Notes: generated by a model not told the origin, from the letters alone. DNA of 64,000 nt from Gammaproteobacteria bacterium UBA3067 (GCA_002366835.1 DFBZ01000018.1:12425-76424), one strand, 5' to 3'; positions 2,716-55,735 are shown, numbered from the stretch's first letter. Numbers and translations: made by a program.

Positions 2716-2760
2716 GCCCATATACTGAGGGTTTCTCCTTCAAGCCAGAGAACAAAATAC

Positions 2761-39390: not shown

Positions 39391-40920
39391 ATGTGCAAAC
39401 GAAACTACCAAAACCGCAGCATACAGCTTTTCATATACGTACTCGCTACACTCAGCCTATTTGCCTGCAACGAGCCAAGCCCCAGCAACTCAAATAAACA
39501 ATATCTCGCTGTAGAAGTTAAGGCGCAGAAAACCACTTCCGTAGAAGAAAGCTTCCCTGTTGAAATAGACCGAATTAGTGTCGAAGTCGTTAATGACCAA
39601 GATGAGGTAATCGCCTCAAGTAGTACTGCAGATAACAGCGCCTCTTTTAACTTATCCGTTCCCCGTGACACTCCCTTATCTGTCATTGCATACGCCTACA
39701 GTGGCAATGAGCTACTTTATAAGGGAGTCGACAAGCTCGACCCCCTCACCTTAAACAGCCAAACTACCGTCGAAATAACCTTACAATCACAGGTGACGGT
39801 ATTAGCACCCCCTGACCCGCAAACTGTGACCGATAGCGGGGCCATAGAGCTCAGCCCGCTTATTGATGTTCGGGGGTTAAACGACTCCAGCCTCGCTTAC
39901 GCCATTAATGGCGTAGAAGGCGGCAATGAGACCCTCGGCCTTATTTCAACCTACGGCACTTACACGCCTCCCCCTCATCTACTAGAAACACTGCAAGTAC
40001 AACTCAGCGCCACCCCCATCGCAGCCCCCTCCTTTGCAGAGATTATTGAGGTGGTCATTGAACCCACGCCCATTGATCTGAATTGGTTTACTGATGAGGG
40101 CCTCAGAAGCTGTGTGGACCAACACGAAGCTGAACTCGTTGCAGCACTTACAACCCTCGACTGCTCCCATCGAACGACGGGTCTCAATATCCTATCCATG
40201 CAAGGTTTGGAAAACCTTACTGCATTAAAAGAACTCAATATCAGCAACCAATATATAGAAAGTATTCCGCCCCTAGGTAGTTTGACACTTTTGAACAAAC
40301 TCACCCTAAGCCTCAACCTTCTTGGCGATATAAAAGGCTTGGAATCACTTCCCTCATTGCAAAGTTTAGATTTAAGCTGGAACCCAGGCTTTTATTCGCT
40401 CGATGGTGACAATCCCCTCGACCCACTAATTCCACTAGCCGCCCTTACCTCACTTAAGGAACTGGATCTTTCTTGTGTATTTAATATGACTGAAAACTCT
40501 GTTAGTGCACTACGCAAAAAACTGCCCAATACAGAGATACTCTTCAAATGTTCATATTTATACCCGGAAACCATTTCGATACAGGCGAATGAGTACTTCG
40601 ACTTTAAAGGTTTTATTTCGACAACAGTGCTCAGCGATATTACAAATAAATTAGAACTTTTATCGAGCGACAAAAAAATAGCAGCACAGATTGATTCAAA
40701 TGACAGTGATGTAATTTATTCAGTAGATGAGATCGTGGGGGGTAATGAGAAAATAGGAACAATCTCGAAAACGGGTAAAGATGCAGGCATCTTTTTCTCA
40801 CCCAGAGTTAATAGCAATCAAATCGTAACACTCAGTGCCAGCCTAGAAGAGGCCCCAACATTTAAGGTTGAACTTAATATCGAGATTAAGCCCATTATTA
40901 ACCCACTATCTACATATTGA
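39391..40920 (+). CDS. leucine-rich-repeat (LRR) lipoprotein with flanking Ig-like/beta regions
   Basis: Lipobox 'LATLSLFAC'. LRR block 'LENLTALKELNISNQYIESIPPLGSLTLLNKLTLSLNLLGDIKGLESLPSLQSLDLSWN...LTSLKELDLS'. A repeated motif 'INGVEGGNETLGLISTYGTYTPP' / 'VDEIVGGNEKIGTISKTGKDAGIFFSP' is present. The ATG lies 1 nt after the upstream OMP stop; the ORF-track start at 39271 overlaps that gene. Confidence 0.7.
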   Translation: MCKRNYQNRSIQLFIYVLATLSLFACNEPSPSNSNKQYLAVEVKAQKTTSVEESFPVEIDRISVEVVNDQDEVIASSSTADNSASFNLSVPRDTPLSVIAYAYSGNELLYKGVDKLDPLTLNSQTTVEITLQSQVTVLAPPDPQTVTDSGAIELSPLIDVRGLNDSSLAYAINGVEGGNETLGLISTYGTYTPPPHLLETLQVQLSATPIAAPSFAEIIEVVIEPTPIDLNWFTDEGLRSCVDQHEAELVAALTTLDCSHRTTGLNILSMQGLENLTALKELNISNQYIESIPPLGSLTLLNKLTLSLNLLGDIKGLESLPSLQSLDLSWNPGFYSLDGDNPLDPLIPLAALTSLKELDLSCVFNMTENSVSALRKKLPNTEILFKCSYLYPETISIQANEYFDFKGFISTTVLSDITNKLELLSSDKKIAAQIDSNDSDVIYSVDEIVGGNEKIGTISKTGKDAGIFFSPRVNSNQIVTLSASLEEAPTFKVELNIEIKPIINPLSTY

Positions 40921-40952
40921 CAGCGAGGGTGGCGCTTTTTCAGGGGTTAAGG

Positions 40953-41053
40953 GCTGCATTGGCTACGACTGGCACTCCTTTTACTGCGCCTTTGTGGAGG
41001 AAAAAAAGAAATAGCTACGCCCAGCCCTTTTACGTTTTAACGACGCATTTAGT
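40953..41053. repeat. ~100-bp near-identical copy of the spacer between immunity paralogues 2 and 3 (43219-43320)
   Basis: 'gcattggctacgactggcactcc-ttttactgcgcctttgtggaggaaaaaaagaaatagctacgcccagcccttttacgttttaacgacgcatttagtcc' versus the same string at 43219-43320, with a few mismatches. Confidence 0.85.
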
Positions 41054-42083
41054 CCTCTATAGTCATTTTTTCTAGAACGACTGCTTCTTTCTCATTGCTT
41101 AACTGGGCGGCAAATTTTTGAATACCATTAATTTTTCGTGTATGAAACTCAAGTTTCAAAGGGGTTAATCGGTCCGGAGATAATTTTTTAAAGGCCGCAA
41201 ATGTTTCTGCTTCGTCGAAATTGAAGACAGGGTACTCGGTATCACCGCCTGGGTTATTCCAAATATAAAAAACCCGTCGAGGAACGGGACGCAGGGCACT
41301 GGCAGTCTCTTCATCCAGCGGGTAGCGAAAACAATCTTCTTCGCCATTGAAATAGTGAATACTTTCCACGAAAGGAGGAGGATTATCAGCAATAATCACA
41401 GGCTGCCAAGGATAATGCACGCGGTAGCTGTCCCATAGTTCGAAGGGGATGCCGTTTTGTTTTAGGGTATTGATATTTTCGATGCCAATTGCATCCTTCA
41501 AGCTTTTGTTAATAAACATTTCCCGAGTAATCTCCGGGTTATCAATGATCCGCGCCCAGGGAATATCTTCCGTTTTTTCAGCTTTACCAAAAAAGACTTC
41601 GGTCGTTTTATTCACGCCAAGCAGCCAGACAGCAACACTGCCCCCCGGTGTCACTCCCGCCATAATCCGCTTATAAGTAGTATGCCCCTTTTCTTTGGGG
41701 CTGTAATAACCTTCATTGAACAGGCGTACGATGGTGTCGTAGGGTAGGTCAAACTCACCTTTATAGAAGACATTTTCGGTATAAGAGAAAAACTCAATCT
41801 CCATACGACTGGGTAAAGACTTTAGATCGGGCCCCACAACGTGGGAAGAAACCATGCTTCCCCAGCCGTAATCAATGCGCTTTGAGTTGGGAATATAAAG
41901 GGAATAGCCATCGGGAGCGATAAAAAAGCCACTGATGATTCTCATGGGAAAGTTTTTGGGGGCACTTTCCGTTGCCAGCCAGTCAAATTTAATCACAGGA
42001 GCACCTCCACAGGCGGATAACAAGGAACCAAAGACAAAAGTACCTGCTAAGGCTAAGCGTTTTTTTACTAATTTAAAGCTCAT
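41049..42083 (-). CDS. lipoprotein, putative Tle1-cognate immunity paralogue 1
   Basis: Lipobox 'GSLLSACGG'. ~80-85% identical by eye to the two upstream paralogues. Downstream of a DUF2235 lipase in a vgrG island. Confidence 0.55.
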   Translation of the reverse strand: MSFKLVKKRLALAGTFVFGSLLSACGGAPVIKFDWLATESAPKNFPMRIISGFFIAPDGYSLYIPNSKRIDYGWGSMVSSHVVGPDLKSLPSRMEIEFFSYTENVFYKGEFDLPYDTIVRLFNEGYYSPKEKGHTTYKRIMAGVTPGGSVAVWLLGVNKTTEVFFGKAEKTEDIPWARIIDNPEITREMFINKSLKDAIGIENINTLKQNGIPFELWDSYRVHYPWQPVIIADNPPPFVESIHYFNGEEDCFRYPLDEETASALRPVPRRVFYIWNNPGGDTEYPVFNFDEAETFAAFKKLSPDRLTPLKLEFHTRKINGIQKFAAQLSNEKEAVVLEKMTIED

Positions 42084-42178
42084 AATAACTGTTGTTGGTA
42101 TCCCTATTGCCCGCTGTGAAAATGCGCGTGAAACTGCAGCTAAGTACCAACAATCAACACGCCCTATTTTCTTATATT

Positions 42179-43219
42179 TTAACGTCTCGCCTTGCCCATA
42201 TACATTTTCTCTAAAACCACCACTTCTTCTTCATTACTTAACTGAACGGCATATTTTCGGACACCATCAATTTTTCGCGTGTAAAACTCCAGTTTTAAGG
42301 GGGTTAAACCATCGGGGCACAGCCTTTTAAAGGCTGCAAACATTTCTGCTTCGTCAAAGTTGAACTTGGGGTAACTGACTTTACCATCGGGATTGTCCCA
42401 AATATAATAAAGCCTTCTAGGGATGGGGCGTAGTGTACTGGGAGCGGGTTCATCCAGCGGATAACGTAAGTTGTCTTCCTCACCATTGAAATAGAATATC
42501 CCATGAATAAAGGGCGGGGGATTATCAGCAATAATCACAGGCTGCCAAGGGTAATGCACGCGGTAGCTGTCCCATAGTTCGAAGGGGATGCCGTTTTGTT
42601 TTAGGGCATTGATATTTTCAATACTAACCGCATCATTTAAAACTTCGTGAACAAACTCCTCTCGTGTAATCTCTGAGCCGTCATAAATTCGCGTCCAGGG
42701 AATATCCTGCGTTCTATCAGCTTTACCAAAAAAGACTTCGGTCTTCTTATTAGTCCCAAGCAACCAAACAGCGACACTACCCCCTGGTGCCACCCCGACC
42801 ATAATCCGTCCATAAGTAGTACGCCCCTCCTCTTTAGAGCTGTAATAGCCGTCATTAAACAGGCGTACGATGGTGTCGTAGGGTAAGTCAAACTCACCCT
42901 TATAGAAGACATTTTCAGTATAAGAAAAAAACTCGATCTCCATACGACTGGGTAAAGATTTTAGATCGGACCCCACGACGTGGGAGGAAATCATGCTTCC
43001 CCAACCGGAATGAATGGTTTTTTCGTTCGGGATATAAAGGGAATAACCATCGGGAGAGATAAAACTGCCACGGACAATTTCCATGGGGTAGTTTTTTGGC
43101 GCACTTTCCGTTGCCAGCCAGTCAAATTTAGTCACAGGGGTGACTCCACAGGCGGACAGCAAAGGGGCGAAGACCAACGTGCCTGCCAAGGATAAACATC
43201 TTTTTAAGGTTTTAAGCAT
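42179..43219 (-). CDS. lipoprotein, putative Tle1-cognate immunity paralogue 2
   Basis: Lipobox 'APLLSACGV'. Collinear with paralogues 1 and 3. The start was chosen at 'MLKTLKR'; the ORF track starts at 43240. Confidence 0.55.
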   Translation of the reverse strand: MLKTLKRCLSLAGTLVFAPLLSACGVTPVTKFDWLATESAPKNYPMEIVRGSFISPDGYSLYIPNEKTIHSGWGSMISSHVVGSDLKSLPSRMEIEFFSYTENVFYKGEFDLPYDTIVRLFNDGYYSSKEEGRTTYGRIMVGVAPGGSVAVWLLGTNKKTEVFFGKADRTQDIPWTRIYDGSEITREEFVHEVLNDAVSIENINALKQNGIPFELWDSYRVHYPWQPVIIADNPPPFIHGIFYFNGEEDNLRYPLDEPAPSTLRPIPRRLYYIWDNPDGKVSYPKFNFDEAEMFAAFKRLCPDGLTPLKLEFYTRKIDGVRKYAVQLSNEEEVVVLEKMYMGKARR

Positions 43220-43313
43220 TGCATTGGCCACGACTGGCACTCCCTTTACTGCGCCTTTATGGAGGAAAAAAAGAAATAGCTACGCCCAGCCCTTTTACGT
43301 TTTAACGACGCAT

Positions 43314-44357
43314 TTAGTCCTCTATAGTCATTTTTTCTAGAACAACTGCTTCTTTCTCATTGCTTAACTGGGCGGAAAATTTTTGAATACCATTAATTTT
43401 GCGTGTATGAAACTCAAGTTTCAAAGGGGTTAATCGGTCCGGAGATAGTTTTTTAAAGGCCGCAAATATTTCTGCTTCGTCGAAATTGAAGACAGGGTAC
43501 TCAGTATCACCGTCTGGGTTATTCCAAATATAATAAACCTCTCGAGGAATGGGGCGCAGAGCGCTTGCAGTTGCTTCATCCAGCGGATAGCGAAAAGAAT
43601 CTTCTTCACCGTTGAAATAATAGATACTTTCCACGAAGGGGGGAGGGTTATCAGCAACAACCACCGGCTGCCAAGGGTAGTGCACGCGGTAACTGTCCCA
43701 TAGTTTAAAGGGAATACCATTTTGTTTTAAGCCATTGATATTTTCAATGCCAATGGCGTCCTCTAAAACTCTGTGAATAAACGTCTCACGTGTGATTTCT
43801 GAGCCATCATAGATTCGCGTCCAGGGAATATCCTGCGTTTTTTCAGCTTTGCCGAAAAAGACTTCTGTCGTTTTGTTCACGCCAGACAGCCAGACGGCGA
43901 CCCCTCCCCCCGGCGTCACCCCAGCCATGATGCTCATATAGGTGGTATGCCCCTCTTCTTTGGAGCTGTAATAGCCGTCATTAAACAGGCGTACAATAGT
44001 ATCGTAGGGTAAGTCAAACTCACCCTTATAGAAGACATTTTCAGTATAAGAAAAAAACTCAATCTCCATACGACTGGGTAAAGATTTTAGATCGGGCCCC
44101 ACCACGTGGGAAGAAACCATGTCCCCCCAACCGTAATGAATAGTTTTTTCGTTCGGGATATAAAGAGAATAGCCATCAGGGGCGATAAAGTAGCCGCTCA
44201 CAATTTCCATGGGATAGTTTTTTGGTGCACTTTCGGTAGCGAACCAGTCAAATTTAGTCACAGGGGTGCCTCCGCAGGCGGATAATAAGGGGCCAAGAAC
44301 AAAGGTCGATACCAAAGCCAAGCCTTGTTTTAGGTTTTTAAATGGGTGATTAACCAC
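43314..44357 (-). CDS. lipoprotein, putative Tle1-cognate immunity paralogue 3
   Basis: Lipobox 'GPLLSACGG'. The GTG start overlaps the Tle1 stop by 8 nt (GTGGTTAA). Confidence 0.55.
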   Translation of the reverse strand: MVNHPFKNLKQGLALVSTFVLGPLLSACGGTPVTKFDWFATESAPKNYPMEIVSGYFIAPDGYSLYIPNEKTIHYGWGDMVSSHVVGPDLKSLPSRMEIEFFSYTENVFYKGEFDLPYDTIVRLFNDGYYSSKEEGHTTYMSIMAGVTPGGGVAVWLSGVNKTTEVFFGKAEKTQDIPWTRIYDGSEITRETFIHRVLEDAIGIENINGLKQNGIPFKLWDSYRVHYPWQPVVVADNPPPFVESIYYFNGEEDSFRYPLDEATASALRPIPREVYYIWNNPDGDTEYPVFNFDEAEIFAAFKKLSPDRLTPLKLEFHTRKINGIQKFSAQLSNEKEAVVLEKMTIED

Positions 44358-45747
44358 GGATAGTTATCCTTTCTCGCTGCCCTTTGCGAATCCTAGGCTT
44401 ATGTGCCGCCAACACCATGTAGCTACGCTGGTAGTGAGCGGAAAAATGTAGCTGCTGATTACGTAAGTCCTTCAGCCAGCTGTAACGGTCGTAACACTTG
44501 GAGCCATGCCAGTCTCCAGCGGCAGATTTATCCTTTTGCGCATACGCGCTTAGATTTTCATACACACCAGAAAGTTGTGTAGGAGGGGCTTCTTTCATTT
44601 GAAATTTGTCTTCTAAAATCATTCCTGTTTCACAAAAAAAATCTGCCATAATATTTAACGGAATTTTAGCATAGCCATTATCTAACCCAGTACGTCGCGA
44701 TTTAAGCCGATGTGGTTCTCGCTGCGGCATTTCACCGTGCAGTGAAATCATTACCTCTAGAGCAGGCGGGCTTTCAATATAGATTTGCTCTTCCGTAAAC
44801 CAGCCTTGGCTCAGTAAATGTTTGCGATCTTTTTCCAAGCTACTTAGGTTCTGGGATTCATTCAGAACTAAGTTTTCTTCAATGTTATTGCGATAGCCAC
44901 CCCCGATATCGGAATGAACCCCCGGCAGAAAAATTTCCCTCCCGCCTTTGCCAATAGCGCTTTTAATAGTGGTGAGGGCAAAGTTACTGCGATGCTCATC
45001 TGCAGCGGCTAGGTGTACCACGGTTTTTACTTCTGGCCGACTCACGGCTTTCAGCTTCAGGCTATTTACATCGTTGTGGCTCAGGCCTTCAGATGAGACG
45101 GTATCATACAAACCCACAAACTCCACCCGTACGTTTTTCTTATCAATCTCAAAACCTTTGGCGCGGATTTTGTCGGCCAAGGGGACAGGTGAAGAAAACA
45201 GGCCACTTTTATCGCTTAAGGTTTTGTGAATAAAATAACGGGCACCGGCTGCCCCACGGCTAAAACCAAAAATATCCAGCACCAGCTCTTCAATAATGGG
45301 GTTTTTCTTTAGCGTGCTCTTAAGTAAATGAACAACCCTATCGACTCCCTTTTCAACCTTTTCCTTCACCCCCGTATCACCTGTGCCAAAAGCAGAGCCT
45401 CTGAAGCTGTCACCTTCTAAATCTTCGGTGCCAGGGCCTTCAATATAGGTGGTTAACAAATACTGATCCTTTCCAAGGGACGTCTTATCAATATAGCTTT
45501 CCATTTTAGCCACATTGGTTTTATCCCCCTCGTAGCTGTTGCCGGCTTTACCAGGTTTCGGCTTGTGCTCCTGATACTTATCGGTGTTCCGCTCCCGCGC
45601 TTCGACATTGGTTCGATTGTTCAAAGTGCCATCGAAAAACACACAAAAGCGGATTTTCACTCTTCGCCGTTTGTCTTTTTTGGGTTTTTCTTCTTGAGGT
45701 GCAGATTCTTCGCTTGCAGAAAAAGCGCCTTCGCCTATATCTGTCAT
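44350..45747 (-). CDS. tle1: DUF2235 alpha/beta hydrolase, T6SS phospholipase effector of the Tle1 type
   Basis: 'RFCVFFDGTLNN', nucleophile elbow 'DIFGFSRGAAGARYF' (GxSxG) and 'LPGVHSDIGGGY' are the DUF2235/Tle1 hallmarks. Located in a vgrG/PAAR operon and followed by lipoprotein genes. Confidence 0.8.
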   Translation of the reverse strand: MTDIGEGAFSASEESAPQEEKPKKDKRRRVKIRFCVFFDGTLNNRTNVEARERNTDKYQEHKPKPGKAGNSYEGDKTNVAKMESYIDKTSLGKDQYLLTTYIEGPGTEDLEGDSFRGSAFGTGDTGVKEKVEKGVDRVVHLLKSTLKKNPIIEELVLDIFGFSRGAAGARYFIHKTLSDKSGLFSSPVPLADKIRAKGFEIDKKNVRVEFVGLYDTVSSEGLSHNDVNSLKLKAVSRPEVKTVVHLAAADEHRSNFALTTIKSAIGKGGREIFLPGVHSDIGGGYRNNIEENLVLNESQNLSSLEKDRKHLLSQGWFTEEQIYIESPPALEVMISLHGEMPQREPHRLKSRRTGLDNGYAKIPLNIMADFFCETGMILEDKFQMKEAPPTQLSGVYENLSAYAQKDKSAAGDWHGSKCYDRYSWLKDLRNQQLHFSAHYQRSYMVLAAHKPRIRKGQRERITIRG

Positions 45748-46865
45748 GGAATTTTAGCCTCCCGTGCTGGACTAGCTTTTGGGTTAACAGTGGGATGTTG
45801 GGGTATTTTTTCCAGCAGTAGCGCAGCACGCCAAGCGTTATCCGATGAGGCATAAACAAGGTGAGCTGCTGGGCCCTTAATTTTTCCTAGGTCTTCCGCC
45901 GCAAGAGCAATAAGCGCCGCGCCGGTGGCGGCACCTAGATCACCGTAGCTGTCTGCTGGGTGATGGTGTTGCACGCCTTGGCAAAAGCAGGATTCGTTGC
46001 GTGTCATGGCGACGCCATATTCTTTGGCCCAGTAGTGCTCACCATTCATGCTGGAATAAATGCTGTGTATGCCGCCACCTTCATAAGCCTGTAATGCTTG
46101 CAAAAAGGCCTGGTGCAGGCCTTCGCCACGGTAAACATGTTCGCTATTGAGGTGGCCAGGTTCCTGCGCTACACCTGCTGGGTTTAAGGCGATGATATGG
46201 CCATCCTGAACATGGGCTTTTTCTGGGTGCCGCGTGAGTAGAAAAAAGCAGGCCCCTTCTCCGGGTGCAAAGCCATTTTGTACGCCAGGGGCCAAAGCTC
46301 GTTCGGCCTCATCGAGGTAAGCAAGGGTGGAATAATCCCAGTAGCTATCGCTGGCACCCACCAGTACATAATCTTGCTGGAGGTCGTAAAGGAAACGTTG
46401 GGCTAAATCCAGGCTTTGCAATACCGCCGCCCGGCCTGTATGAACAGTGCGCACCTGCCGGCGATCAATGGGAAGTTTTGCCTGGTTAATCAGGTTATCC
46501 AGCATGACTTCAGGGCTAATATTGGGGGTATGGGGCAAGCTTTCTGCGAATGAAAGCACCAAGGGCACCGGCTCTGATACCGGGTGACGCTGAAATACCT
46601 GCGATGCAGCCAGGATGGCCATTTTAATTATACGATCGTAGCGCTCGCAACATTCGCTACCTTGGTCTATTTCGAGTTCAAAGCCGGTAAAGATTTCCTC
46701 GGGGATGCCTGTCATGGTGATGAAGCCATCTTGGAGGTTCTCATAGTCAGACACACGATAGGCACTAATACCCGCCCTGAGGGAAGCGGCCGTCATTTCA
46801 GTGCTGCTTCCCAAGGGGCTGAGCATGCCGGTGGCTGCGAGGTAGAGTTTTTGGGTATGGCTCAT
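45744..46865 (-). CDS. beta-ketoacyl-synthase/thiolase-fold protein lacking the catalytic Cys-His-His (pseudoenzyme; candidate T6SS adaptor)
   Basis: KAS-like blocks: 'LYLAATGMLSPLG', 'YVLVGASDS', 'NGFAPGEGACFFLLTR', 'GDLGAATGAALIALA'. The expected 'TAC(A/S)' reads 'HTGRAAV', 'HGTGT' reads 'SMNGEH', and 'GH' reads 'GD'. The stop overlaps the tle1 start (ATGA). Confidence 0.6.
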   Translation of the reverse strand: MSHTQKLYLAATGMLSPLGSSTEMTAASLRAGISAYRVSDYENLQDGFITMTGIPEEIFTGFELEIDQGSECCERYDRIIKMAILAASQVFQRHPVSEPVPLVLSFAESLPHTPNISPEVMLDNLINQAKLPIDRRQVRTVHTGRAAVLQSLDLAQRFLYDLQQDYVLVGASDSYWDYSTLAYLDEAERALAPGVQNGFAPGEGACFFLLTRHPEKAHVQDGHIIALNPAGVAQEPGHLNSEHVYRGEGLHQAFLQALQAYEGGGIHSIYSSMNGEHYWAKEYGVAMTRNESCFCQGVQHHHPADSYGDLGAATGAALIALAAEDLGKIKGPAAHLVYASSDNAWRAALLLEKIPQHPTVNPKASPAREAKIP

Positions 46866-46968
46866 TCAGTCGATCCTAAGGAGCAGGGGCTTTGGTGTTG
46901 CTTGTTAAAATACGCGTTTACAGTGCCTGGATACTCACGAGTGGCCTCACCACGTATGAATTTAAACC

Positions 46969-47349
46969 TTAACCCATAATGTTTTTATCATTATGAAGAA
47001 GCGGGTCGCCTAGGCGGCAAGCATTTTTCCCTTCAAATTTTATATCAAATGAATACATCATAAATTCGCAGGTCCCTTTGGTTTTGCCGCTGACCACACC
47101 GCCGATTGAACCCGCCTCGTCCCCTGTAGAGGTGGAATACTTCGCACCCTTTACCATTGGCATTTCGCCATCAACGGTTACTGTGCTGGGGCCGCCGCTG
47201 GTGTCAGAAGATTTGCCCGTATTCGGATAAGGGATAGGCACCGGGCCACCAGGAGTGGGTGTTTTGCAGACATCGGGAAAGACAGTGCTTACACCACCAC
47301 TGCCTTTGTGAACGATGCCTCTGCCATTAGCAAATGTAGTTTGTGCCAC
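46969..47349 (-). CDS. PAAR-like DUF4150 protein (stand-alone, no toxin extension)
   Basis: 'VHKGSGGVSTVFPDVCKTPTPGGPVPIPYPNTGKSSD...VTVDG...STGDEAG..GGVVSG...F..YSFDIKFEGKNACRLGDPLLHN' matches DUF4150. 126 aa, GTG start. Confidence 0.75.
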   Translation of the reverse strand: MAQTTFANGRGIVHKGSGGVSTVFPDVCKTPTPGGPVPIPYPNTGKSSDTSGGPSTVTVDGEMPMVKGAKYSTSTGDEAGSIGGVVSGKTKGTCEFMMYSFDIKFEGKNACRLGDPLLHNDKNIMG

Positions 47350-47582
47350 TTTAGTTTTTCTCCTGCGTGATTATTCAGTGTTGTTTAATTTGAACGCTCA
47401 CATTTCGAGATTTATATTTTTCGAAACGTCACTTATAAACTAGGGGGAACGCTGTCCGCCACTTGAGTTGGATGAAGTTAAATCCAACCGTTTTGATATA
47501 CGCTTTATTATTTTAAGTTTGGCTCCACGAAATCAGATATGATTTTAACCCTTAACGTAGGACCCATAATCAAGGGCTAAAT

Positions 47583-47609
47583 GTTGGGTTTCGCTACGCT
47601 CTACCCAAC
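47583..47609. repeat. REP-like palindromic element
   Basis: 'gttgggt-ttcgctacgctct-acccaac' is a 7-bp perfect stem. The sequence resembles a REP-type element widespread in marine gammaproteobacteria. There is a single copy in this window. Confidence 0.4.
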
Positions 47610-47648
47610 CTACAGGGTATTTTCGAGCATACTAAACCCCTACACTTG

Positions 47649-47684
47649 AGGTAAGAAATAAGCTAACCAACTTATTTCTTACCT
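47649..47684. terminator. 14-bp perfect hairpin just downstream of the HEAT-like gene
   Basis: 'aggtaagaaataag' - loop 'ctaaccaa' - 'cttatttcttacct'. The T-tract follows on the plus strand only, so terminator function for the minus-strand operon is uncertain. Confidence 0.35.
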
Positions 47685-47696
47685 TATTTTTCGCAA

Positions 47697-48899
47697 TTAA
47701 ATGCGTAGTCTTCTGGGTGCTTCATCAGTAAATGTCACGCCGTAATTTAACTGCAGCTCCAACCGTGCTGCTTCCCTTTGGGTTTGTTTGCCTTGTTTTA
47801 GAATTTTATTCAGGCTTTCTTCGTTAATGATTTCTCCGGCCAAGTAACGCTTTTCTGCCACAAAATTCTGACAACTTCTCTCATACCATTGGCGTATTTT
47901 TATATCATCGGGCCAAGGTAGTTTCCGATCTTTATCGTCTAACTCAACGGCATCCAAGATAACAGATTCTTTTGTCATCTTATTTTTTTCCAAATCAAGG
48001 CCAGTGATCATGAAGAATGAATGTCCGGCTAATCGAGCATGGCTTTCGTTTGACATCTGCTTTATCAACCAGGGTAAGGCGGTGGAATCACCCAATACTC
48101 CTATAGCACTGATTAACTTTCTTAAATTACCAGGGGTTTCACCTAGCTCTTGCGCCCAGGCTTTTGCTTCAGTTTTTGGCAAAGCCCGAAACGCAAAGTT
48201 TATAGCGTTATCTGCAAGGGCTACGTTGTCAAAAATAATGGGCTTTAAAAGACTGGCCTGAGTTTTATCCCCCAGTAACAGTGAAGCGAAAATGCTTGAA
48301 CACGCAATTTGTGCATTGTCATCTTTCACATGACACTGAATCTTTGGCAGCAAATCTTTACGTTGCATCATCCCTGCTGCGCGAATCAGACAAGAAAAAT
48401 ATTCTGGTGTGTTTTTTAACTGCTGATTGTTAAGCGCTGTATCTACTACTTCACCGCAATGAACACCGTGCAAAGCACAGGCGCAAACCCCCAAGCACAA
48501 ATAAGCCGGATTGTTCGCCTGCATTAATTTGCTTATCCCGCTTTTCACCCTTCCCAGGGGCAACCATGATAGTGCGGAAAGTAGAGCCTGGTAGGTTTGC
48601 TGGTTAAGGCAGCCTGTTTCAATTGCTTTTTTTATCCACTCATCTTTGTCACTGCTAAACGCCAGCACCACCGCTGTAAAAACCTCACCAGAATCTTCGA
48701 ACTGCAATGCCGCCTCGCAGGCTTTCCAGCCTGCCTCCCCATGTAGAAGCAAACCTTCCAGCTGCGCGTCAATGCGCCCTTCTAATTCAATGAGTCTCGC
48801 AAGTTCACAATCAGGGCTATTGATGGCCTGATCATGTAGCAACCAAAAAAAAGCGGCGTTTTCGGCCATTTTCATCGGTATTTCGTCAAAAGAATTCAT
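47697..48899 (-). CDS. helical-repeat (HEAT-like) protein, possibly TIGR02270 family, T6SS-island associated
   Basis: All-alpha repetitive sequence. The C-terminal 'IGVLGDSTALPWLIKQMSNESHARLAGHSFFMITGLDL' resembles TIGR02270-type proteins (from memory). The ATG at 48899 overlaps the DUF2169 stop (ATGA); the ORF track starts at 48989. Confidence 0.45.
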   Translation of the reverse strand: MNSFDEIPMKMAENAAFFWLLHDQAINSPDCELARLIELEGRIDAQLEGLLLHGEAGWKACEAALQFEDSGEVFTAVVLAFSSDKDEWIKKAIETGCLNQQTYQALLSALSWLPLGRVKSGISKLMQANNPAYLCLGVCACALHGVHCGEVVDTALNNQQLKNTPEYFSCLIRAAGMMQRKDLLPKIQCHVKDDNAQIACSSIFASLLLGDKTQASLLKPIIFDNVALADNAINFAFRALPKTEAKAWAQELGETPGNLRKLISAIGVLGDSTALPWLIKQMSNESHARLAGHSFFMITGLDLEKNKMTKESVILDAVELDDKDRKLPWPDDIKIRQWYERSCQNFVAEKRYLAGEIINEESLNKILKQGKQTQREAARLELQLNYGVTFTDEAPRRLRI

Positions 48900-49933
48900 G
48901 CGACACCCTGATGTTTTTGGCTCAAATAATTGATATCGACTTGCTCGATATTTAACGTTTCTTTGTCGCAGGGTGTGCAGGCTCGCCATACAACAGAGAA
49001 CCGGTTCTGGTCGGGTTCAATAAGTACGGTTTCCATAAACAAAGGGGGTTTCTCTTTTCGATTTTTTATATGGACAAGCACTTCAAGAGGGTTTACTGGC
49101 AGGCAAAAATTCAGCTCGCCAAAGGGGCTTGCATTTTTAATCTGAACGGATTCGCTTCCCTCCAAATATTTCTCGGTAATTAAGTCCTGATGCGCCATAT
49201 TAAAAAAACGCTTATCGAAATCATCTGGAAGATAAGGGGCGGTATTTTTTTTCCAAACTTCGTCGTAGGTTCCCGCGTACTGAAACCTTGGTTGCCAAGC
49301 CGGGGAGATAAAACCAAAACAGGCAGGTGCTGGTTGGTCATGGCTGGTGGAAATTAGCTGCCTGGGGTCTTCCAAATTTGGCAGCTGGATTCCATTTATT
49401 TCCTTGCCTTCTCGTTTTCCGATAAAACCCTTACCAATCGGGTTACGGGGATCACTCAGAGTAGTGGTTTCATTTTTATCTTTTTCTTGGGTTATATGCA
49501 TGCCGCCATAAGCCTTCTCATAAACCAGGGGCATTTTTTCAAAGGGAGCTGAGGGACTTATGTTTCCGTTTTTCCACTCGCGATCACCAAATACAGCAAG
49601 CTCTAATTTTTGTCTGGCGACTTGTAACGAAACGTTCAGATGGCTGATTAGAGGGGTATTTTCCGCTTGAGCGTTACCGATAAGAATAATATCTGTTGCA
49701 GCTTTACCCAGGTGCATATCAGATGCATATTTTATACTCGACTGAGCGGGTTCGCCCCAATAAACGTCCCCCTGAAACGGTGGAATTTGTGTTTCCAGTA
49801 ATTTCACTTTTGGTAGAATTTCAAAACTGGCTTTCAAAATAATATAGAGGGTATCGATACCCTTTTCGTTTGGAAGCACGGTAATCGCTGGTGAAATGGC
49901 GGTATTATTTTTTAACTGCAACATGGGGGACAA
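48896..49933 (-). CDS. DUF2169-family T6SS accessory/adaptor protein
   Basis: The N-terminus 'LKNNTAISPAITVLPNEKGIDTLYIILKASFEI', together with size and position after vgrG, fits DUF2169. TTG start at 49933 or ATG at 49924. Confidence 0.65.
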   Translation of the reverse strand: MSPMLQLKNNTAISPAITVLPNEKGIDTLYIILKASFEILPKVKLLETQIPPFQGDVYWGEPAQSSIKYASDMHLGKAATDIILIGNAQAENTPLISHLNVSLQVARQKLELAVFGDREWKNGNISPSAPFEKMPLVYEKAYGGMHITQEKDKNETTTLSDPRNPIGKGFIGKREGKEINGIQLPNLEDPRQLISTSHDQPAPACFGFISPAWQPRFQYAGTYDEVWKKNTAPYLPDDFDKRFFNMAHQDLITEKYLEGSESVQIKNASPFGELNFCLPVNPLEVLVHIKNRKEKPPLFMETVLIEPDQNRFSVVWRACTPCDKETLNIEQVDINYLSQKHQGVA

Positions 49934-49979
49934 CTACTTCTATGTGAGAAAAACTTAACTGCTTAACACTAACTTGCAA

Positions 49980-50534
49980 TCAGTTTATTTGAACTGACCC
50001 GCCTAAAATTCGATGAGTACCACTTGATCGACTGGAAATATAGCTGCCCCTTAAAAGTATTTTTCCATCTTTGCTTAGGGTGATACTTGCTTTGCCACAT
50101 TTGAGTGTCATTTGTTCTTTTGCTTCGATACAGTGTTCTTTTCCATCGACGATAATATCTAGACTTTTTTCTTCTGCCTCTGTCGAGGGCGAAGGTAAGT
50201 TTTGATCTAACCATTCCTCGCTGGACTTCTGAGTATTGCTTCCATTTTCCAGGACATCCATCATTTCACAATGAATGATGCCGATAATCACCGGTTGACT
50301 GAGGTCTCCACCATTAAAAAGTAATGCGGCTTCTCTGCCAATATTTTTCGCTTCAATGGGAATTGTCGCTAACGCTAACACATGCCTCCCAGAGCGATTA
50401 TGGGGATAGTCAACATACACGCCACTTTGATCAACTTTTTTAATGTAGCCAATAACAACTTCTCCAGGAGAAATTGCCGAGGAGTGTTCAGTCGTGACTT
50501 TTCTTCCTGAAATAGTGTCGTGATCTTTTATCAA
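49980..50534 (-). CDS. small VgrG-associated protein with a gp5/VgrG-like C-terminal beta-helix rung
   Basis: 184 aa. The TTG start overlaps the vgrG stop (TTGA). The C-terminus 'MTLKCGKASITLSKDGKILLRGSYISSRSSGTHRILGGSVQIN' parallels the VgrG end 'VFKTGNAQIVMKKNGDITLKGKNISVQGSGDVVLKGAKVTTN'. Confidence 0.5.
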   Translation of the reverse strand: MIKDHDTISGRKVTTEHSSAISPGEVVIGYIKKVDQSGVYVDYPHNRSGRHVLALATIPIEAKNIGREAALLFNGGDLSQPVIIGIIHCEMMDVLENGSNTQKSSEEWLDQNLPSPSTEAEEKSLDIIVDGKEHCIEAKEQMTLKCGKASITLSKDGKILLRGSYISSRSSGTHRILGGSVQIN

Positions 50535-52555
50535 TTTGTTGTCACCTTTGCGCCTTTGAGAACTACATCGCCGGAGCCTTGTACTGAGATATTTTTACCT
50601 TTTAATGTTATATCGCCATTCTTTTTCATAACAATTTGCGCGTTACCGGTTTTAAATACAATTTCATCCTCAGCCACCATCACGATTTTTTTAGCTTGTA
50701 CGGAATAATTTTCGGTTACTGTCAGGATCGATTCGCCGCCTACGTTTTCCGAGAGATCTTTTCCTATGTTTATGCTTTCGTTGCTGCCAATGCTGATAGA
50801 TAGATCTGTTTCCACAGAAATATCCTGATTTTTTCCTATGCTGACAGTTTGATTATTGCCTATGGTAATGGTTTGGTTATTCCCAATGCTGCTACTTTGG
50901 TCATTCCCTACTGTATTGGTTTCATTGTTGCCAATATCTTTTGTTCTGTCATTCCCGATGGTATTAAATTGATCATGTTCAACAGCAGTCGATTGATCAT
51001 TTTCTACGTGACTGTTGTAGTCTTTCTCAGCATGAACATAGACTTCTTCGCTATCTTTTTTATCTTCAAAACGAATTTCATTAAAGTTTTGAGGTGTGCC
51101 GCCTTTAGAGCTTCGGCTTTTAATGCCACTTTGGGTTTTATTTGCGGGTAATTCATAAGGGGGCATGTTGTCATCGTTATAGACTCGACCGGTAATAAGT
51201 GGTCTATCTGGGTCCCCTTCCAGAAAATCCACAATCACTTCTTGCCCTATACGGGGAAGGTGAACCCCTCCCCAATTATTCCCTGCCCAGATATGGGCGA
51301 CACGAATCCAGCAGGAGCTATTTTCATTTGCTTCACCATAACGGTCCCAATGAAACTGCACTTTTACACGGCCATATTCGTCAGTATGAATTTCTTCTCC
51401 TTGAGGGCCAACCACAATGGCGGTTTGAATACCCCGCACGATCGGTTTTTCGGTGTCGCGAGGCGTACGAAATGCTTGCTCAGCATCGATAACCCCTATA
51501 GATATAGTAAAATTGGTTTCGTTGTCATTTTGGACCTTCGATTCATATTCTTGAGGACCTAGGTGGTACGAGGCGGTCGAGATCAGGTATTGCCTATTTT
51601 GGTCTTCTCGAAGAAAGTGGTTTGTCAGTGTAAACAAGCTGCCTACAAAAAGGCCTCCTGCATTGCCCTCCCCTTGCGCTGTTTCATGTTGTGCCTGTAG
51701 CTCTTCGATGCGGTTACGTGCGTAGTTTTCGCCATCAGAACTTTCAACATATGCACCAGGGTAATCATAAATTTCGTAATTTGCTTTTTCATGTTCACGC
51801 GGTTGCGTTGCACTAACCAGAAGGTTAGCCTTCGGTTTTTTGAAATCAAATCCATTCAGCACGTAGGCTCCAGGCTGTATGTGCTGGCTTAGTGTCCACG
51901 AATACAGATGGTCTCGCTCACGGCGTTTATTTTCTTCCAGTGGGTAGTAGGGTACTTCTTCGTAACCGGGCACAGCTTCATGGGCATTAACTGAATCGGC
52001 CAGCACCAGGGTGTGCTTCCTGTCTTCGTGTTTAAAATAGTAATAGATTCCCTCTTGCTCTAAGAGGCGGCTGATAAAATTAAAGTCCGTTTCACGGTAT
52101 TGAACACAATACTCCCACTCACGGTGAGAGCCCGTTAGGGATTCTTCAAAATCGCTAAAACCATGTTCTCGGAAAACGTCTTTTACAATGTCCGGCACGG
52201 TTTTATTTTGAAATATACGGCTGTCTGCGTTGCGCGTTAAGAACCAAAACCAAGGGCGAAGTGTTGCCCGATATAGCGATAAATCACCATGGCTTCCTGC
52301 CTGGGTGAAACCACTAACAATGCCATTAAAATAACGAACTTCCTTATCTAGTCGTTGATATTGCACGGTCATACTTTGGCCAAGCATTTCCTGAAAGTTA
52401 ATTTCAGGGTTGGCGCTCAACAGGTCTAGATCAAACTTAAAGAGCTCACCCAGCTTTTCATTGGCGGTCATACGGTGAAACAGCAAAACATCGTCGTCTA
52501 AGATGGTTTTTACTGAGATGCTTCTATTAGCTTGTGTTGCCTTCAAACTTGACAT
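50531..52555 (-). CDS. vgrG: type VI secretion spike protein VgrG (no C-terminal effector domain)
   Basis: 674 aa. gp27-like N-terminus ('VKTILDDDVLLFHRMTANEKLGELFKFDLDLLS', 'YCVQYRETDFNFISRLLEQEGIYYYF'), gp5 OB region ('VVGPQGEEIHTDEYGRVKVQFHWDR') and C-terminal beta-helix repeats. Confidence 0.9.
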   Translation of the reverse strand: MSSLKATQANRSISVKTILDDDVLLFHRMTANEKLGELFKFDLDLLSANPEINFQEMLGQSMTVQYQRLDKEVRYFNGIVSGFTQAGSHGDLSLYRATLRPWFWFLTRNADSRIFQNKTVPDIVKDVFREHGFSDFEESLTGSHREWEYCVQYRETDFNFISRLLEQEGIYYYFKHEDRKHTLVLADSVNAHEAVPGYEEVPYYPLEENKRRERDHLYSWTLSQHIQPGAYVLNGFDFKKPKANLLVSATQPREHEKANYEIYDYPGAYVESSDGENYARNRIEELQAQHETAQGEGNAGGLFVGSLFTLTNHFLREDQNRQYLISTASYHLGPQEYESKVQNDNETNFTISIGVIDAEQAFRTPRDTEKPIVRGIQTAIVVGPQGEEIHTDEYGRVKVQFHWDRYGEANENSSCWIRVAHIWAGNNWGGVHLPRIGQEVIVDFLEGDPDRPLITGRVYNDDNMPPYELPANKTQSGIKSRSSKGGTPQNFNEIRFEDKKDSEEVYVHAEKDYNSHVENDQSTAVEHDQFNTIGNDRTKDIGNNETNTVGNDQSSSIGNNQTITIGNNQTVSIGKNQDISVETDLSISIGSNESINIGKDLSENVGGESILTVTENYSVQAKKIVMVAEDEIVFKTGNAQIVMKKNGDITLKGKNISVQGSGDVVLKGAKVTTN

Positions 52556-52860
52556 TAATTCCTCTCAACTCCCCGTTCGGCAATGCTGCTCTAACGCCTT
52601 GGGGTGAAATCCGAGCAGGCTGAAATTTTTCTAGCTCAAACTACAAGTGAACGGAAGATAGGCTAAAGCATGGTCAGCTGAAATGCCATTGTAAATTTTC
52701 CACGAAGTGATTCAGGCTCTGTGGGAGTATTGCTTTAAATAGCAGGAAGAACTGCGAAAGGAGCGCCACTCGGAACCGGTAACGCTTTAAGTACAAGGTA
52801 CTCAGGACATAACTCTAGCTAATAGGGGCTTCCTTGCCCCAAAAAAACCGAGCAACTAGT

Positions 52861-53187
52861 TCAGGCTTGTACTTGAACCGCTCCATTTACAACCTTAACG
52901 GGGTAGGTTTCGAGCTGAACGGATTCATCCTCTAAACATTTGCCGCTGCTCAACACAAAGTGCTGTTTGTATACGGGGGAAGCCACAACAATCTCACCTT
53001 TGAGGTCCCCTACCAAACCCCGTGAAAGCACGTTGGCTTTACTGAAGGGGTCGTGGTTATCCACTGCATACAACTCTTCACCCTCGCCAAGGCGGAAGAT
53101 GGCGACCTGCTTTTCATTCACCAGCGCACACACACCACTATCAGGTAAAACTTGATCTAATTGACAAACTTCTAACCACTTACTCAT
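52861..53187 (-). CDS. nirD: nitrite reductase [NAD(P)H] small subunit
   Basis: 'MSKWLEVCQLDQVLPDSGVCALVNEKQVAIFRL...VDNHDPFSKANVLSRGLVGD' is Rieske-like NirD. The start was set at ATG 53187; the ORF track starts at 53283. Confidence 0.85.
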   Translation of the reverse strand: MSKWLEVCQLDQVLPDSGVCALVNEKQVAIFRLGEGEELYAVDNHDPFSKANVLSRGLVGDLKGEIVVASPVYKQHFVLSSGKCLEDESVQLETYPVKVVNGAVQVQA

Positions 53188-53197
53188 TACTTTCACC

Positions 53198-55735
53198 TTA
53201 AGCTGTTTCGACTTCTTGAAGGGGAGCCTTTTCTTCTTCGCGAGCAGGTCGAATCTGCTCACGCTCTCGGACAAAGACCACATTGGAGTCGGCCTTCTCG
53301 CTGTTTACAAAATGAGTAAAACGCTGCACTGCTTTTTCATCCTCGATAGTGCGCTTCCATTCACATTCATAGTTATCGATCACGATCTGCATTTCGGCTT
53401 CGAGCTTCTCGCCAAGGCCCAGGCTGTCATTGATGACGACATCCTGAAGATAGGCCAAACCGCCTTCCAGATTTTCCATCCATACCGAGGTGCGTTGCAA
53501 ACGATCGGCGGTGCGAATATAGAACATGAAAAAACGATCGATGTATTTAATCAGTGTTTCTTTATCAAGATCCGACGCGAAAAGATCACCATGGCGTGGT
53601 TTCATACCGCCGTTGCCACAAACGTACATATTCCAGCCATTTTCGGTGGCAATAATACCCACGTCTTTACTCTGGGCTTCGGCACATTCGCGTGTACAAC
53701 CGGATACGGCGAGTTTTACTTTATGGGGGGAACGCAGACCGCGATAGCGTTTTTCCACTTCAATAGCCAGACCGACACTATCGTCCATTCCGTATCGGCA
53801 CCAGGTACTTCCTACGCAAGATTTTACTGTGCGCATGGCTTTGCCATAGGCATGGCCAGTTTCAAAACCCGCATCAACCAGTTCTTTCCAAATGTGTGGT
53901 AACTGTTCCATACGGGCGCCAAACATATCGATACGTTGGCCACCGGTAATTTTGGTGTAAAGGTCGTATTTCTTGGCCACTTCGCCAATAACGATCAGCC
54001 CTTCGGGTGTGATTTCACCGCCTGGAATACGAGGAACCACTGAGTAAGTGCCATCTTTCTGCAAATTGCCCAAGAAGTTGTCGTTGCTATCTTGTAGCGG
54101 AGTATTCTCTTTCTCAAGAACATACTTGTTCCAGCAGGACGCAAGAATGGAACCCACCGTTGGACGACAAATATCACAACCATGGCCTTTACCGTGTTTA
54201 GCGATCAGCTCTCCAAAGCTGCGAATTTCTCCAACACGGACAATATCGTAAAGCTCTTGCCGCGTATGATTAAAATGCTCACAGATGCTTTTATCTACTT
54301 CAACACCACGCTTTTCCAACTCGGAATCAAATACCTGCTTCACTAGGGCAGCACAGCCTCCGCAGCCTGTTGCAGCGGTGGTGCAAGATTTCAATTCAGC
54401 AAGTTCGGTGACTCCACCTTCAATAGCGCAGCATAAATCACCTTTGGTCACGTTATTACAGGAACAAATTTGTGCGGTTTCAGGCAGGGCATCGACCCCA
54501 AGACCAGCCGGTGCGCCATCGCTATGAGGAAGAATTAACGCATCGGGGCTTTCTGGAATAGCCATTTCATTGAGCATTAGCTGCAATAAGGTGCCATATT
54601 CTTCAGCATCGCCCACCAGCACTGCACCCAGTAATTTTTTATTATCGCCGCTAACGACGATCTTTTTGTAAACCTGCTTGATTTCATCGTTATAGCTGAA
54701 AGAACGGCTACCTTCGGTGCGAGCATGGGCATCGCCTACGCTGGCTACATCCACTCCCATCAACTTAAGCTTGGTGCTCATATCCGCACCGGCAAACTGA
54801 GCCTCTTTACCCACCAGATGATCGGCTGCAACTTTCGACATTTGCCAACCTGGTGCGATCAAACCAAAAATTCGCTGCTCCCACAGGGCGCATTCGCCGA
54901 TGGCATAAACATCTTCATCGGATGTCTGGCAGTAGTTATTGATGGTAATACCACCGCGTGGGCCAATCTCTAGGCCGGAGCTTCTCGCCAATTCATCTTG
55001 AGGACGAATACCTGCTGAGAAAACGATCAAATCCGTATTCAGCTCTTCCCCATCCGCAAAGCACATTTTGTGGGTGGCATCATCACCGTCGATAATTTCC
55101 TTGGTGTTTTTTTCGGTATGAACACAAACACCTAGTTCTTCGATTTTAGTGCGCAATACGGCACCACCACCGTCATCCACCTGAACAGCCATAAGTCGCG
55201 GCGCGAACTCTACCACGTGGGTCTGCAAACCGAGGTCTTTCAAGGCTTTAGCCGCTTCCAAACCCAGCAACCCCCCACCCACCACCGCGCCTACTTTGGC
55301 ATTTTTTGCGGCAGCAGCAATTTTATCCAGATCATCCAGGGTGCGATAAACAAAACAGTTATCTCGCTCGTGACCAGGTACAGGAGGAACAAAGGGGAAA
55401 GAACCCGTTGCCAGAATAAGCTTGTCGTAGTTTATCTCGACGCCATTGGCTGATTTAACCGTTTTAGTGGCCAGATCTATTTCAGTGGCTTTATCTTCAA
55501 GATAAACCTGAATATCATTTTCTTCGTAAAACCCTGGCTTCACTAAAGAAAGGTCATCAGCACTGTTGCCAGAGAAGTAAGAAGTGAGATGCACCCTATC
55601 GTAAGCCAACTTTGACTCTTCACAGAAAGTGGCGATCTCAAACTGTTTGTTCTCATCATTGCTCACCAGCTCTTCTATAAAGCGGTGTCCAACCATACCG
55701 TTTCCGATCACAACTACTTTTTGCTTACTGCTCAC
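53198..55735 (-). CDS. nirB: nitrite reductase [NAD(P)H] large subunit
   Basis: 845 aa, GTG start. FAD/NAD motifs 'VVVIGNGMVGHRF' and 'VVGGGLLGLEAA'. BFD-like 2Fe-2S Cys motifs. Sirohaem/4Fe-4S motif 'SGCTRECAEA...CGNGG'. Confidence 0.9.
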   Translation of the reverse strand: MSSKQKVVVIGNGMVGHRFIEELVSNDENKQFEIATFCEESKLAYDRVHLTSYFSGNSADDLSLVKPGFYEENDIQVYLEDKATEIDLATKTVKSANGVEINYDKLILATGSFPFVPPVPGHERDNCFVYRTLDDLDKIAAAAKNAKVGAVVGGGLLGLEAAKALKDLGLQTHVVEFAPRLMAVQVDDGGGAVLRTKIEELGVCVHTEKNTKEIIDGDDATHKMCFADGEELNTDLIVFSAGIRPQDELARSSGLEIGPRGGITINNYCQTSDEDVYAIGECALWEQRIFGLIAPGWQMSKVAADHLVGKEAQFAGADMSTKLKLMGVDVASVGDAHARTEGSRSFSYNDEIKQVYKKIVVSGDNKKLLGAVLVGDAEEYGTLLQLMLNEMAIPESPDALILPHSDGAPAGLGVDALPETAQICSCNNVTKGDLCCAIEGGVTELAELKSCTTAATGCGGCAALVKQVFDSELEKRGVEVDKSICEHFNHTRQELYDIVRVGEIRSFGELIAKHGKGHGCDICRPTVGSILASCWNKYVLEKENTPLQDSNDNFLGNLQKDGTYSVVPRIPGGEITPEGLIVIGEVAKKYDLYTKITGGQRIDMFGARMEQLPHIWKELVDAGFETGHAYGKAMRTVKSCVGSTWCRYGMDDSVGLAIEVEKRYRGLRSPHKVKLAVSGCTRECAEAQSKDVGIIATENGWNMYVCGNGGMKPRHGDLFASDLDKETLIKYIDRFFMFYIRTADRLQRTSVWMENLEGGLAYLQDVVINDSLGLGEKLEAEMQIVIDNYECEWKRTIEDEKAVQRFTHFVNSEKADSNVVFVREREQIRPAREEEKAPLQEVETA

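Follow-up and report, generated by a model that had tools for sequence, protein, structure and literature searches.

Why should a protein that resembles a fatty-acid condensing enzyme be encoded directly upstream of a secreted lipase? The question is raised by a 64,000-nucleotide stretch of DNA from Gammaproteobacteria bacterium UBA3067 (GCA_002366835.1 DFBZ01000018.1:12425-76424), referred to here as the window. In it, a 373-amino-acid (aa) protein resembling the β-ketoacyl-acyl carrier protein (ACP) synthases (KAS) is encoded within a type VI secretion system (T6SS) operon, immediately 5′ of a phospholipase effector of the Tle1 family. The original prediction, made from the DNA sequence, described this KAS-like protein as a catalytically dead condensing enzyme and proposed that it is a new type of T6SS adaptor or, alternatively, that it binds the acyl or lipid substrate of the lipase to keep it inactive. 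We find that the protein is predicted to retain the condensing-enzyme fold while lacking the catalytic residues, that it is a homologue of the PRK06147/TvpD family, and that gene neighborhood and sequence divergence link it to the effector. In our judgment, there is a slightly better than even chance that it is an effector-dedicated adaptor or chaperone of Tle1 in this clade. Three features of the window define the question (open reading frames [ORFs] were taken as the longest ORF throughout):

45744..46865, minus strand: pseudo-ketosynthase (KAS-like, PRK06147/TvpD-related), 373 aa (NF004798, AlphaFold2, Foldseek, and alignments)
44350..45747, minus strand: Tle1-family phospholipase effector (DUF2235), 465 aa, with a GFSRG serine motif (Pfam PF09994, E = 9.4e-22)
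45758..45763, minus strand: GGGAGG Shine-Dalgarno sequence for tle1 (read from the sequence)

The KAS-like ORF starts with ATG, and its translation contains every peptide that had been quoted as evidence of a KAS scaffold or of its altered active site: HTGRAAV (residues 142-148), YVLVGASDS (166-174), NGFAPGEGACFFLLTR (197-212), SMNGEH (272-277), and GDLGAATGAALIALA (308-322). The coupling to tle1 can likewise be read directly from the DNA. An ATGA at 45744-45747, within TCCATGACAG, joins the TGA stop of the KAS-like gene (45746-45744) to the ATG of tle1 (45747-45745), and the Shine-Dalgarno sequence (45763-45758) lies ten bases 5′ of the tle1 start, inside the 3′ end of the KAS-like gene. The gap between the end of the upstream PAAR-like ORF (46969) and the KAS-like start (46865) is 103 nucleotides (nt), as had been reported. 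The effector itself is a cargo effector without a PAAR domain, and public assemblies contain a protein identical to it (P0270).

To examine the fold, we used structure prediction and profile alignment. The AlphaFold2 model, built with 56 homologues, has a predicted local distance difference test (pLDDT) score of 89.3 and a predicted template modeling (pTM) score of 0.91. A Foldseek search of the Protein Data Bank (PDB) with this model returned 1002 matches at E ≤ 0.001, headed by FabF (E = 1e-17; TM score, 0.70-0.75; 12-18% identity); the best structural matches comprised FabF/KAS II, a mitochondrial ketosynthase, and ketosynthase/chain-length-factor pairs of type II polyketide synthases (PKS). 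The chain-length factor is itself a ketosynthase paralogue that lacks the nucleophilic Cys and thus sets a precedent. A single-sequence search of the PDB sequences gave no matches, and the KAS homology emerged by profile search. In the profile alignment to the KAS chains of the PDB, tGRAag lies over TACAAG, which places R145 on the nucleophilic Cys, and smnGe lies over SAHGT, which places N274 on the first His. Alignment to Escherichia coli FabF with hhalign, for which the FabF sequence was entered by hand, gave the replacements C163 to R145, H303 to N274, K335 to A304, and H340 to D309; the local run reached residues 1-261 only, and the second His and the Lys were placed by the global run. 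The substitutions first proposed by eye, Arg for Cys and the loss of both His motifs, are thus reproduced, and the profile alignments show the Cys-His-His triad to be gone. In the Pfam scan, PF00109 (ketoacyl-synt) scored 20.1 bits, under its gathering score of 20.8, and PF02801 gave no match at E ≤ 0.01. As far as sequence and model indicate, the protein has a condensing-enzyme fold without any catalytic residue.

The loss is common to the family. Among 35 members with 26-48% identity to the window protein, none has Cys at the nucleophile column. Residues G144, E282, R289, P303, G308, D309, and G311 are invariant in this set, and R145, N274, G275, E276, H302, and R346 are at least 90% conserved. 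A profile of the family matches only 4875 of 1.84 billion representative proteins at E ≤ 0.001, which sets it apart from the true KAS enzymes. About 1004 clusters (50% identity) match the same profile at E ≤ 1e-30; together with the confident AlphaFold2 model, this argues for a real gene and against a chance ORF.

A literature search joining type VI secretion, Tle1, and ketoacyl found no papers, and the family was reached through an NCBIfam name. NF004798 (PRK06147) matches residues 4-353 of the window protein over positions 3-343 of the 349-position model (E = 1.5e-50). Since the score of 172 bits falls under the equivalog cutoff of 342, we assign the protein as a homologue of NF004798 and not as an "equivalog"; two paralogues in the TvpD position also score under it, at 203 and 174 bits. 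In an alignment that took in the DUF2169-adjacent paralogues of two related loci (L026 and L035) and of Mesorhizobium, the motifs GR, DGFxPGEGA, NGExxWAKE, HPADxxGDxGAA, and SSDxxxRAA are common to the KAS-like protein and the TvpD-position paralogues. PRK06147 was singled out from gene neighborhoods by Liu et al. in 2020 as a probable fourth class of T6SS adaptor, with genes lying mostly beside DUF2169 and 5′ of PAAR-fused Tox-GHH2 and AHH toxins (PMC7714669). Sachar et al. 2025 include it, under the label "thiolase-like," in DUF2169 synteny type A and note that transposon hits in every gene of a Proteus mirabilis cluster of this type abolish effector-dependent killing (PMC11883445). In 2026, PA0098 was named TvpD, and AlphaFold models alone led to the proposal that TvpD and DUF2169 jointly shield the PAAR domain of Tse7 (PMC13373197). 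A separate pseudo-ketosynthase, TsmK, stabilizes the T6SS membrane complex of Acinetobacter (PMC10564176). The suggestion of a new adaptor type therefore does not hold: a condensing-enzyme fold acting as a T6SS adaptor is an already published hypothesis and not a new class. What is new here is the arrangement with a cargo effector, a clade dedicated to Tle1, and a candidate N-terminal tag.

The window protein is homologous over its full length to the model of the known PRK06147/TvpD members (PA0098, VP1399 of Vibrio parahaemolyticus, and the P. mirabilis pef cluster), at a score under the equivalog cutoff, and, like them, is encoded in a Class II Tvp, or synteny type A, cluster, in which VgrG, DUF6484, and DUF2169 are accompanied by a PAAR-like gene; for both, an adaptor or co-chaperone role is proposed, not proven. 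They differ in placement. The TvpD gene sits between DUF2169 and a PAAR-toxin fusion, whereas the window gene follows a stand-alone PAAR-like gene and directly precedes a separate cargo effector, and, unlike TvpD, the window clade is also found in orphan cassettes without DUF2169. TsmK (AsaB), compared here by description, is alike in having a ketosynthase-like fold with lost catalytic residues that was co-opted by the T6SS. It differs in that it stabilizes TssL-TssM, is encoded in a core cluster, described as lacking tssJ, and not in a spike and effector operon of the present kind, occurs mostly in Acinetobacter, and keeps one catalytic His.

For comparison of gene neighborhoods, the remaining genes of the operon were assigned by Pfam and NCBIfam scans. 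The order on the minus strand is VgrG, DUF6484, DUF2169, TIGR02270, PAAR-like, KAS-like, Tle1, and three copies of DUF2931:

50531..52555, minus strand: VgrG spike protein, 674 aa (TIGR03361, 675 bits; Pfam Phage_GPD and Gp5_trimer_C)
49980..50534, minus strand: DUF6484 protein, TvpC-like (Pfam PF20093, E = 3.4e-15)
48896..49933, minus strand: DUF2169 protein, a TvpA-type PAAR chaperone (Pfam PF09937, E = 5.7e-88; function taken from PMC11883445 and PMC13373197)
47697..48989, minus strand: TIGR02270-family protein, longest ORF 430 aa (NCBIfam TIGR02270, 232 bits; cutoff, 206.8)
46969..47349, minus strand: stand-alone PAAR-like (DUF4150/PIPY) spike-tip protein, 126 aa (Pfam PF13665, E = 2.6e-40)
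43314-44357, 42179-43240, and 41049-42083, minus strand: three tandem DUF2931 lipoprotein genes, Tli1-type immunity candidates (Pfam PF11153)

A scan of one genome per species (GTDB) yielded 79 related loci, onto which eight window proteins were mapped by tblastn. Almost all of these loci come from gammaproteobacterial metagenome-assembled genomes (MAGs) and from marine genera such as Colwellia, Psychromonas, Cellvibrio, Marinimicrobium, and Aliikangiella; the gene contexts are largely MAG derived. The best relative in the genome collection is 54% identical, and near-identical metagenome contigs exist. The commonest gene order is VgrG, DUF6484, DUF2169, PAAR-like, TIGR02270, KAS-like, and Tle1, followed by one to four DUF2931 genes. 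Where at least 900 nt of downstream sequence was available, Tle1 lay directly 3′ of the KAS-like gene in 56 of 68 cases, usually with DUF2931 next. The other 12 KAS-like genes are mostly followed by recognizable or candidate toxins (two Rhs proteins, one Ntox15 protein, a weak AHH match, DUF2515, and several unassigned families). In most relatives, TIGR02270 rather than the PAAR-like gene is directly 5′ of the KAS-like gene, and the gap to tle1 is usually 10-40 nt. The argument that the gene occupies an adaptor slot stands insofar as it lies in a T6SS spike/effector operon directly 5′ of the effector, and needs correction in two details, PAAR-like adjacency and ATGA overlap, neither of which is conserved. 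The conserved feature is the position immediately 5′ of the effector.

The association with the effector also persists away from the spike genes. Where 4 kb or more of sequence was available upstream, 20 of 61 KAS-like genes have no spike gene within 8 kb upstream and form orphan helper-effector-immunity cassettes; one of these (L004) has a PAAR-like gene just downstream. Two such cassettes stand in tandem in L036. L026 and L035 each carry two KAS-like paralogues in one operon (2612-3703 and 10001-11062; 6628-7734 and 9410-10498), one in the TvpD position between DUF2169 and the PAAR-like gene and the other directly 5′ of Tle1, with the family motifs in all copies. Both pairs are consistent with duplication followed by division of labor. 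An annotated Mesorhizobium plasmid has the classical order of DUF2169, KAS-like, PAAR-like-toxin, and SMI1/KNR4, and the T6SS context as a whole is kept across gammaproteobacterial lineages and on alphaproteobacterial and Ralstonia replicons.

One related locus replaces the KAS-like gene with an established type of adaptor. In L086 (7085-9401), which has no KAS-like gene, DUF4123 occupies its slot, directly 5′ of a Tle1 that is 42% identical to that of the window and is followed by DUF2931. The DUF4123 protein Tla1 is an experimentally validated adaptor of Pseudomonas aeruginosa Tle1 (PMC13133936). DUF4123 adaptors (Tap/Tec; Tla1) and KAS-like proteins are alike in sitting directly 5′ of a cargo effector and in having paralogues that each accompany their own effector in one genome, and their folds are unrelated. 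DUF4123 proteins bind C-terminal extensions of VgrG, whereas the spike in the window is tipped by a PAAR-like protein and has DUF2169 and DUF6484 as helpers. Experiments have demonstrated binding by the DUF4123 adaptors; for the KAS-like protein, it is proposed.

Sequence divergence was followed by correlating pairwise protein distances over the 21 complete loci, i.e., those with all seven genes present. Two groups emerged: one of VgrG, DUF2169, and TIGR02270, with mutual correlations of r = 0.80-0.90, and the other of the KAS-like protein, Tle1, and DUF2931, with r = 0.63-0.69. Against the three proteins of the first group, the KAS-like protein reaches r = 0.50-0.52 and Tle1 only 0.25-0.32; the weakest correlation of the KAS-like protein is with the PAAR-like protein (r = 0.32). 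The divergence of the KAS-like protein follows the effector more than the spike genes, and its intermediate correlation, the pattern expected of a bridging protein, lends support to such a role. In a neighbor-joining tree, a single large clade unites the Tle1-linked KAS-like genes, and the branches outside it comprise the genes neighboring Rhs, Ntox15, or other toxins, along with one TvpD-position paralogue.

Comparison of the effectors themselves pointed to a shared N-terminal peptide, which in the window is the following:

45727..45747, minus strand: MTDIGEG codons at the Tle1 N terminus, matching the M-[TS]-x-[IVL]-[GC]-E tag (motif comparison)

Unrelated effectors 3′ of KAS-like genes often begin with this peptide and continue with a charged linker. 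Besides the window Tle1, the tag occurs as MTEIGES in both Rhs effectors (L055 and L082), as MTEIGEG in the Ntox15 effector, and in unassigned families as MTQIGEA, MTQVGEG, MTDVCEG, MTELGEK (a 312-aa protein), and shorter forms such as MELGET; tagged effector starts were noted at L025, L055, L059, L061, L074, L077, L080, and L082. A loose pattern matches 37 of the 49 Tle1 genes that are complete and 9 of the 11 effectors of other kinds, a frequency of about 75-80%, versus under 1%, or 8 of ∼940 other ORFs in the same loci. Among Tle1 homologues from databases, 81 of 120 match the strict tag, and most others have near variants, e.g., Asn for Gly. Codon usage varies at the Gly and Glu of the tag, from which it follows that conservation acts at the protein level. 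The tag is absent from the DUF4123-linked Tle1 (L086) and from three Tle1 genes not directly 3′ of a KAS-like gene. As a strict marker of KAS-like linkage, it was rejected: P0286, P0292, and P0302 have a KAS-like gene upstream and other N termini. The tag is also present in second Tle1 copies (L017 and L035) that do not directly follow a KAS-like gene. The literature searched contained no description of the motif. In addition, the Rhs and Ntox15 effectors (L055, 11143-15579; L074, 11137-12651; L082, 11099-15898) have in common an N-terminal domain of ∼370 aa, 58% identical between L055 and L074, with no Pfam match and no PAAR domain; it may be a loading domain.

On this evidence, we favor a role for the KAS-like protein as adaptor or chaperone of Tle1, because the context statistics, the tracking of divergence, and the DUF4123 replacement in a related locus all fit it. 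In the proposed mechanism, the inactive KAS-fold protein would bind newly made Tle1 in the cytoplasm, the effector being translated from the same mRNA directly downstream. With TIGR02270 and DUF2169, it would then attach Tle1, ready for firing, to the VgrG spike at its stand-alone PAAR-like tip, and delivery of Tle1 would presumably require it. We also consider, more tentatively and as a possibility well short of an even chance, a wider scheme in which the pseudo-ketosynthases of this clade make up a modular system that adapts cargo effectors to PAAR-like (PIPY) spikes. For toxins of unrelated families, the mark would be the N-terminal tag, with an acidic or lysine-rich linker behind it. Either the conserved former active site of the KAS-like protein or the conserved TIGR02270 or PAAR-like partners would recognize this tag, and a variable KAS-like surface would fit the body of each toxin.

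Several observations weigh against a Tle1-dedicated adaptor. The published AlphaFold model puts PA0098 (TvpD) on the PAAR domain and not on the toxin domain (PMC13373197). In L013, L087, and L090, the KAS-like gene stays behind TIGR02270 with Tle1 elsewhere in the cluster: after DUF2169 in L013, after DUF6484 in L087, and before TIGR02270 in L090. In L087, the KAS-like gene is clearly the last of the operon; in the other two loci, the contig breaks off at this gene or inside it. A 796-aa protein (P0199) fuses a TIGR02270 domain (329 bits) to a KAS-like domain (residues 450-790), which suggests that the two work together, although an assembly or frameshift artifact is possible. The layout of these three loci and the fusion both point to a link between the KAS-like protein and the genes for spike assembly. 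At the former active site, R145, N274, E276, H302, and D309 are strongly kept, which a pure scaffold role leaves unexplained; these conserved pocket residues could mean ligand binding or a different chemistry. Finally, linked genes share a history, and the distance correlations are therefore supportive, not decisive.

These points bear directly on the alternatives. The protein might be a co-chaperone of the TvpD type only, which together with DUF2169, and perhaps TIGR02270, shields the PAAR-like protein while the spike is being assembled and makes no specific contact with Tle1, adjacency to the effector being a matter of operon layout. The family identity and signature motifs held in common with the TvpD-position paralogues speak for this, as do the PA0098 model, the TIGR02270-bound layouts and the P0199 fusion, the place of the window gene directly behind the PAAR-like gene, and the correlation of r ∼ 0.5 with VgrG, DUF2169, and TIGR02270. 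Yet one would not then expect a third of the scorable copies to sit in orphan cassettes with an effector, correlation to be weakest with the PAAR-like protein and stronger with Tle1 and DUF2931, or KAS-like clades to follow the effector family. Nor would one expect a separate TvpD-position paralogue to be kept beside the Tle1-linked copy in L026 and L035, or a DUF4123 effector adaptor to stand in the KAS-like slot 5′ of a related Tle1. We regard a purely spike-directed role as rather unlikely, and a dual role, in which the protein would bind both spike and effector, fits the data best.

The conserved pocket could instead belong to an enzyme or small-molecule binder with a remodeled active site, which modifies the effector or spike or holds a lipid or acyl ligand; the lipase-inhibitor idea of the original prediction falls under this heading. 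A decaying pocket would not normally show five residues that are at least 90% conserved or invariant, and the model predicts an intact thiolase fold with confidence. Condensing or decarboxylase chemistry is nevertheless not expected, given that no member has the nucleophilic Cys and that both His and the Lys are replaced, and no ACP, fatty-acid, or polyketide genes were identified inside the T6SS operon, to which annotation was confined. A role specific to lipids is opposed by the close paralogues found 5′ of Rhs, Ntox15, AHH-like, and unassigned toxins and by the published members 5′ of nuclease toxins (PMC7714669); holding of a lipid substrate was rejected as a general function of the family on account of these nuclease and Rhs partners, and its use to keep Tle1 inactive is unlikely. 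Moreover, Tle1 acts, and is neutralized by lipoproteins, in the periplasm (PMC13133936, PMC10395195), so that a cytoplasmic inhibitor is not obviously needed. Overall, we judge a remodeled active site improbable. That the gene encodes a genuine β-ketoacyl-ACP synthase of fatty-acid or polyketide metabolism, placed by chance beside T6SS genes, is scarcely credible. Sources do annotate relatives as 3-oxoacyl-ACP synthase, and a weak Pfam ketoacyl-synt match exists. Compared with FabF and FabB, however, which have the same thiolase/condensing-enzyme fold at 12-18% identity, the protein has all four catalytic positions replaced, and no ACP, fatty-acid synthase, or PKS genes were identified in the operon. 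These replacements, the separateness of the family (a PF00109 score under the gathering score, no PF02801 match, and few profile matches), and a T6SS context conserved from gammaproteobacterial to alphaproteobacterial and Ralstonia replicons effectively refute a true KAS.

Further observations concern the surroundings of the gene. The TIGR02270-family protein is probably a HEAT/ARM-like repeat protein, and its true start probably lies ∼30 codons inside the longest ORF, since the 93%-identical locus (L001) is called at 400 aa. TIGR02270 precedes the PAAR-like gene in the window, L001, and L008, the reverse of the usual order, and the two genes are separated in the window by a gap of 347 nt (47350-47696) with a 16-bp stem-loop (47647-47686) just past the TIGR02270 stop. 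The gap with its stem-loop and the reversed order suggest that the PAAR-like, KAS-like, Tle1, and immunity genes are a unit acquired or expressed separately. A promoter and terminator scan of 40500-53200 did no better than on shuffled sequence, found no terminator between the PAAR-like and KAS-like genes, and is uninformative on operon boundaries. Of the DUF2931 genes, the first copy matches PF11153 at E = 4.9e-28, and the other two are clear paralogues by translation, with an LLSACG lipobox; this immunity family neutralizes Tle1 of Vibrio cholerae (PMC10395195). The closest relatives, L001 (93% identity) and L084 (identical Tle1), have a single DUF2931 gene followed by leucine-rich repeat and autotransporter genes, which implies that the immunity array grew recently in the window strain. 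Directly 5′ of vgrG, as in L001, lie nirB and nirD (nitrite reductase; 52861-55735, minus strand), and the T6SS genes therefore constitute an auxiliary vgrG island and do not belong to a core T6SS cluster.

Few conserved T6SS accessory proteins are as poorly understood as the PRK06147/TvpD pseudo-ketosynthases, whose role rests on gene neighborhoods, AlphaFold models, and transposon hits in one species. In the clade represented in the window, the helper stands apart from the PAAR domain and is paired instead with a separate and well-studied cargo effector, Tle1, which gives a clean experimental handle on the family. If the favored role is correct, Tle1 would have a further loading route in addition to those through DUF4123 adaptors and by direct contact with VgrG. 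New toxins might be found with the help of the shared N-terminal peptide if it is functional; should the wider modular scheme prove true, the tag would rank with MIX, FIX, and prePAAR as a new marker motif usable for effector discovery.

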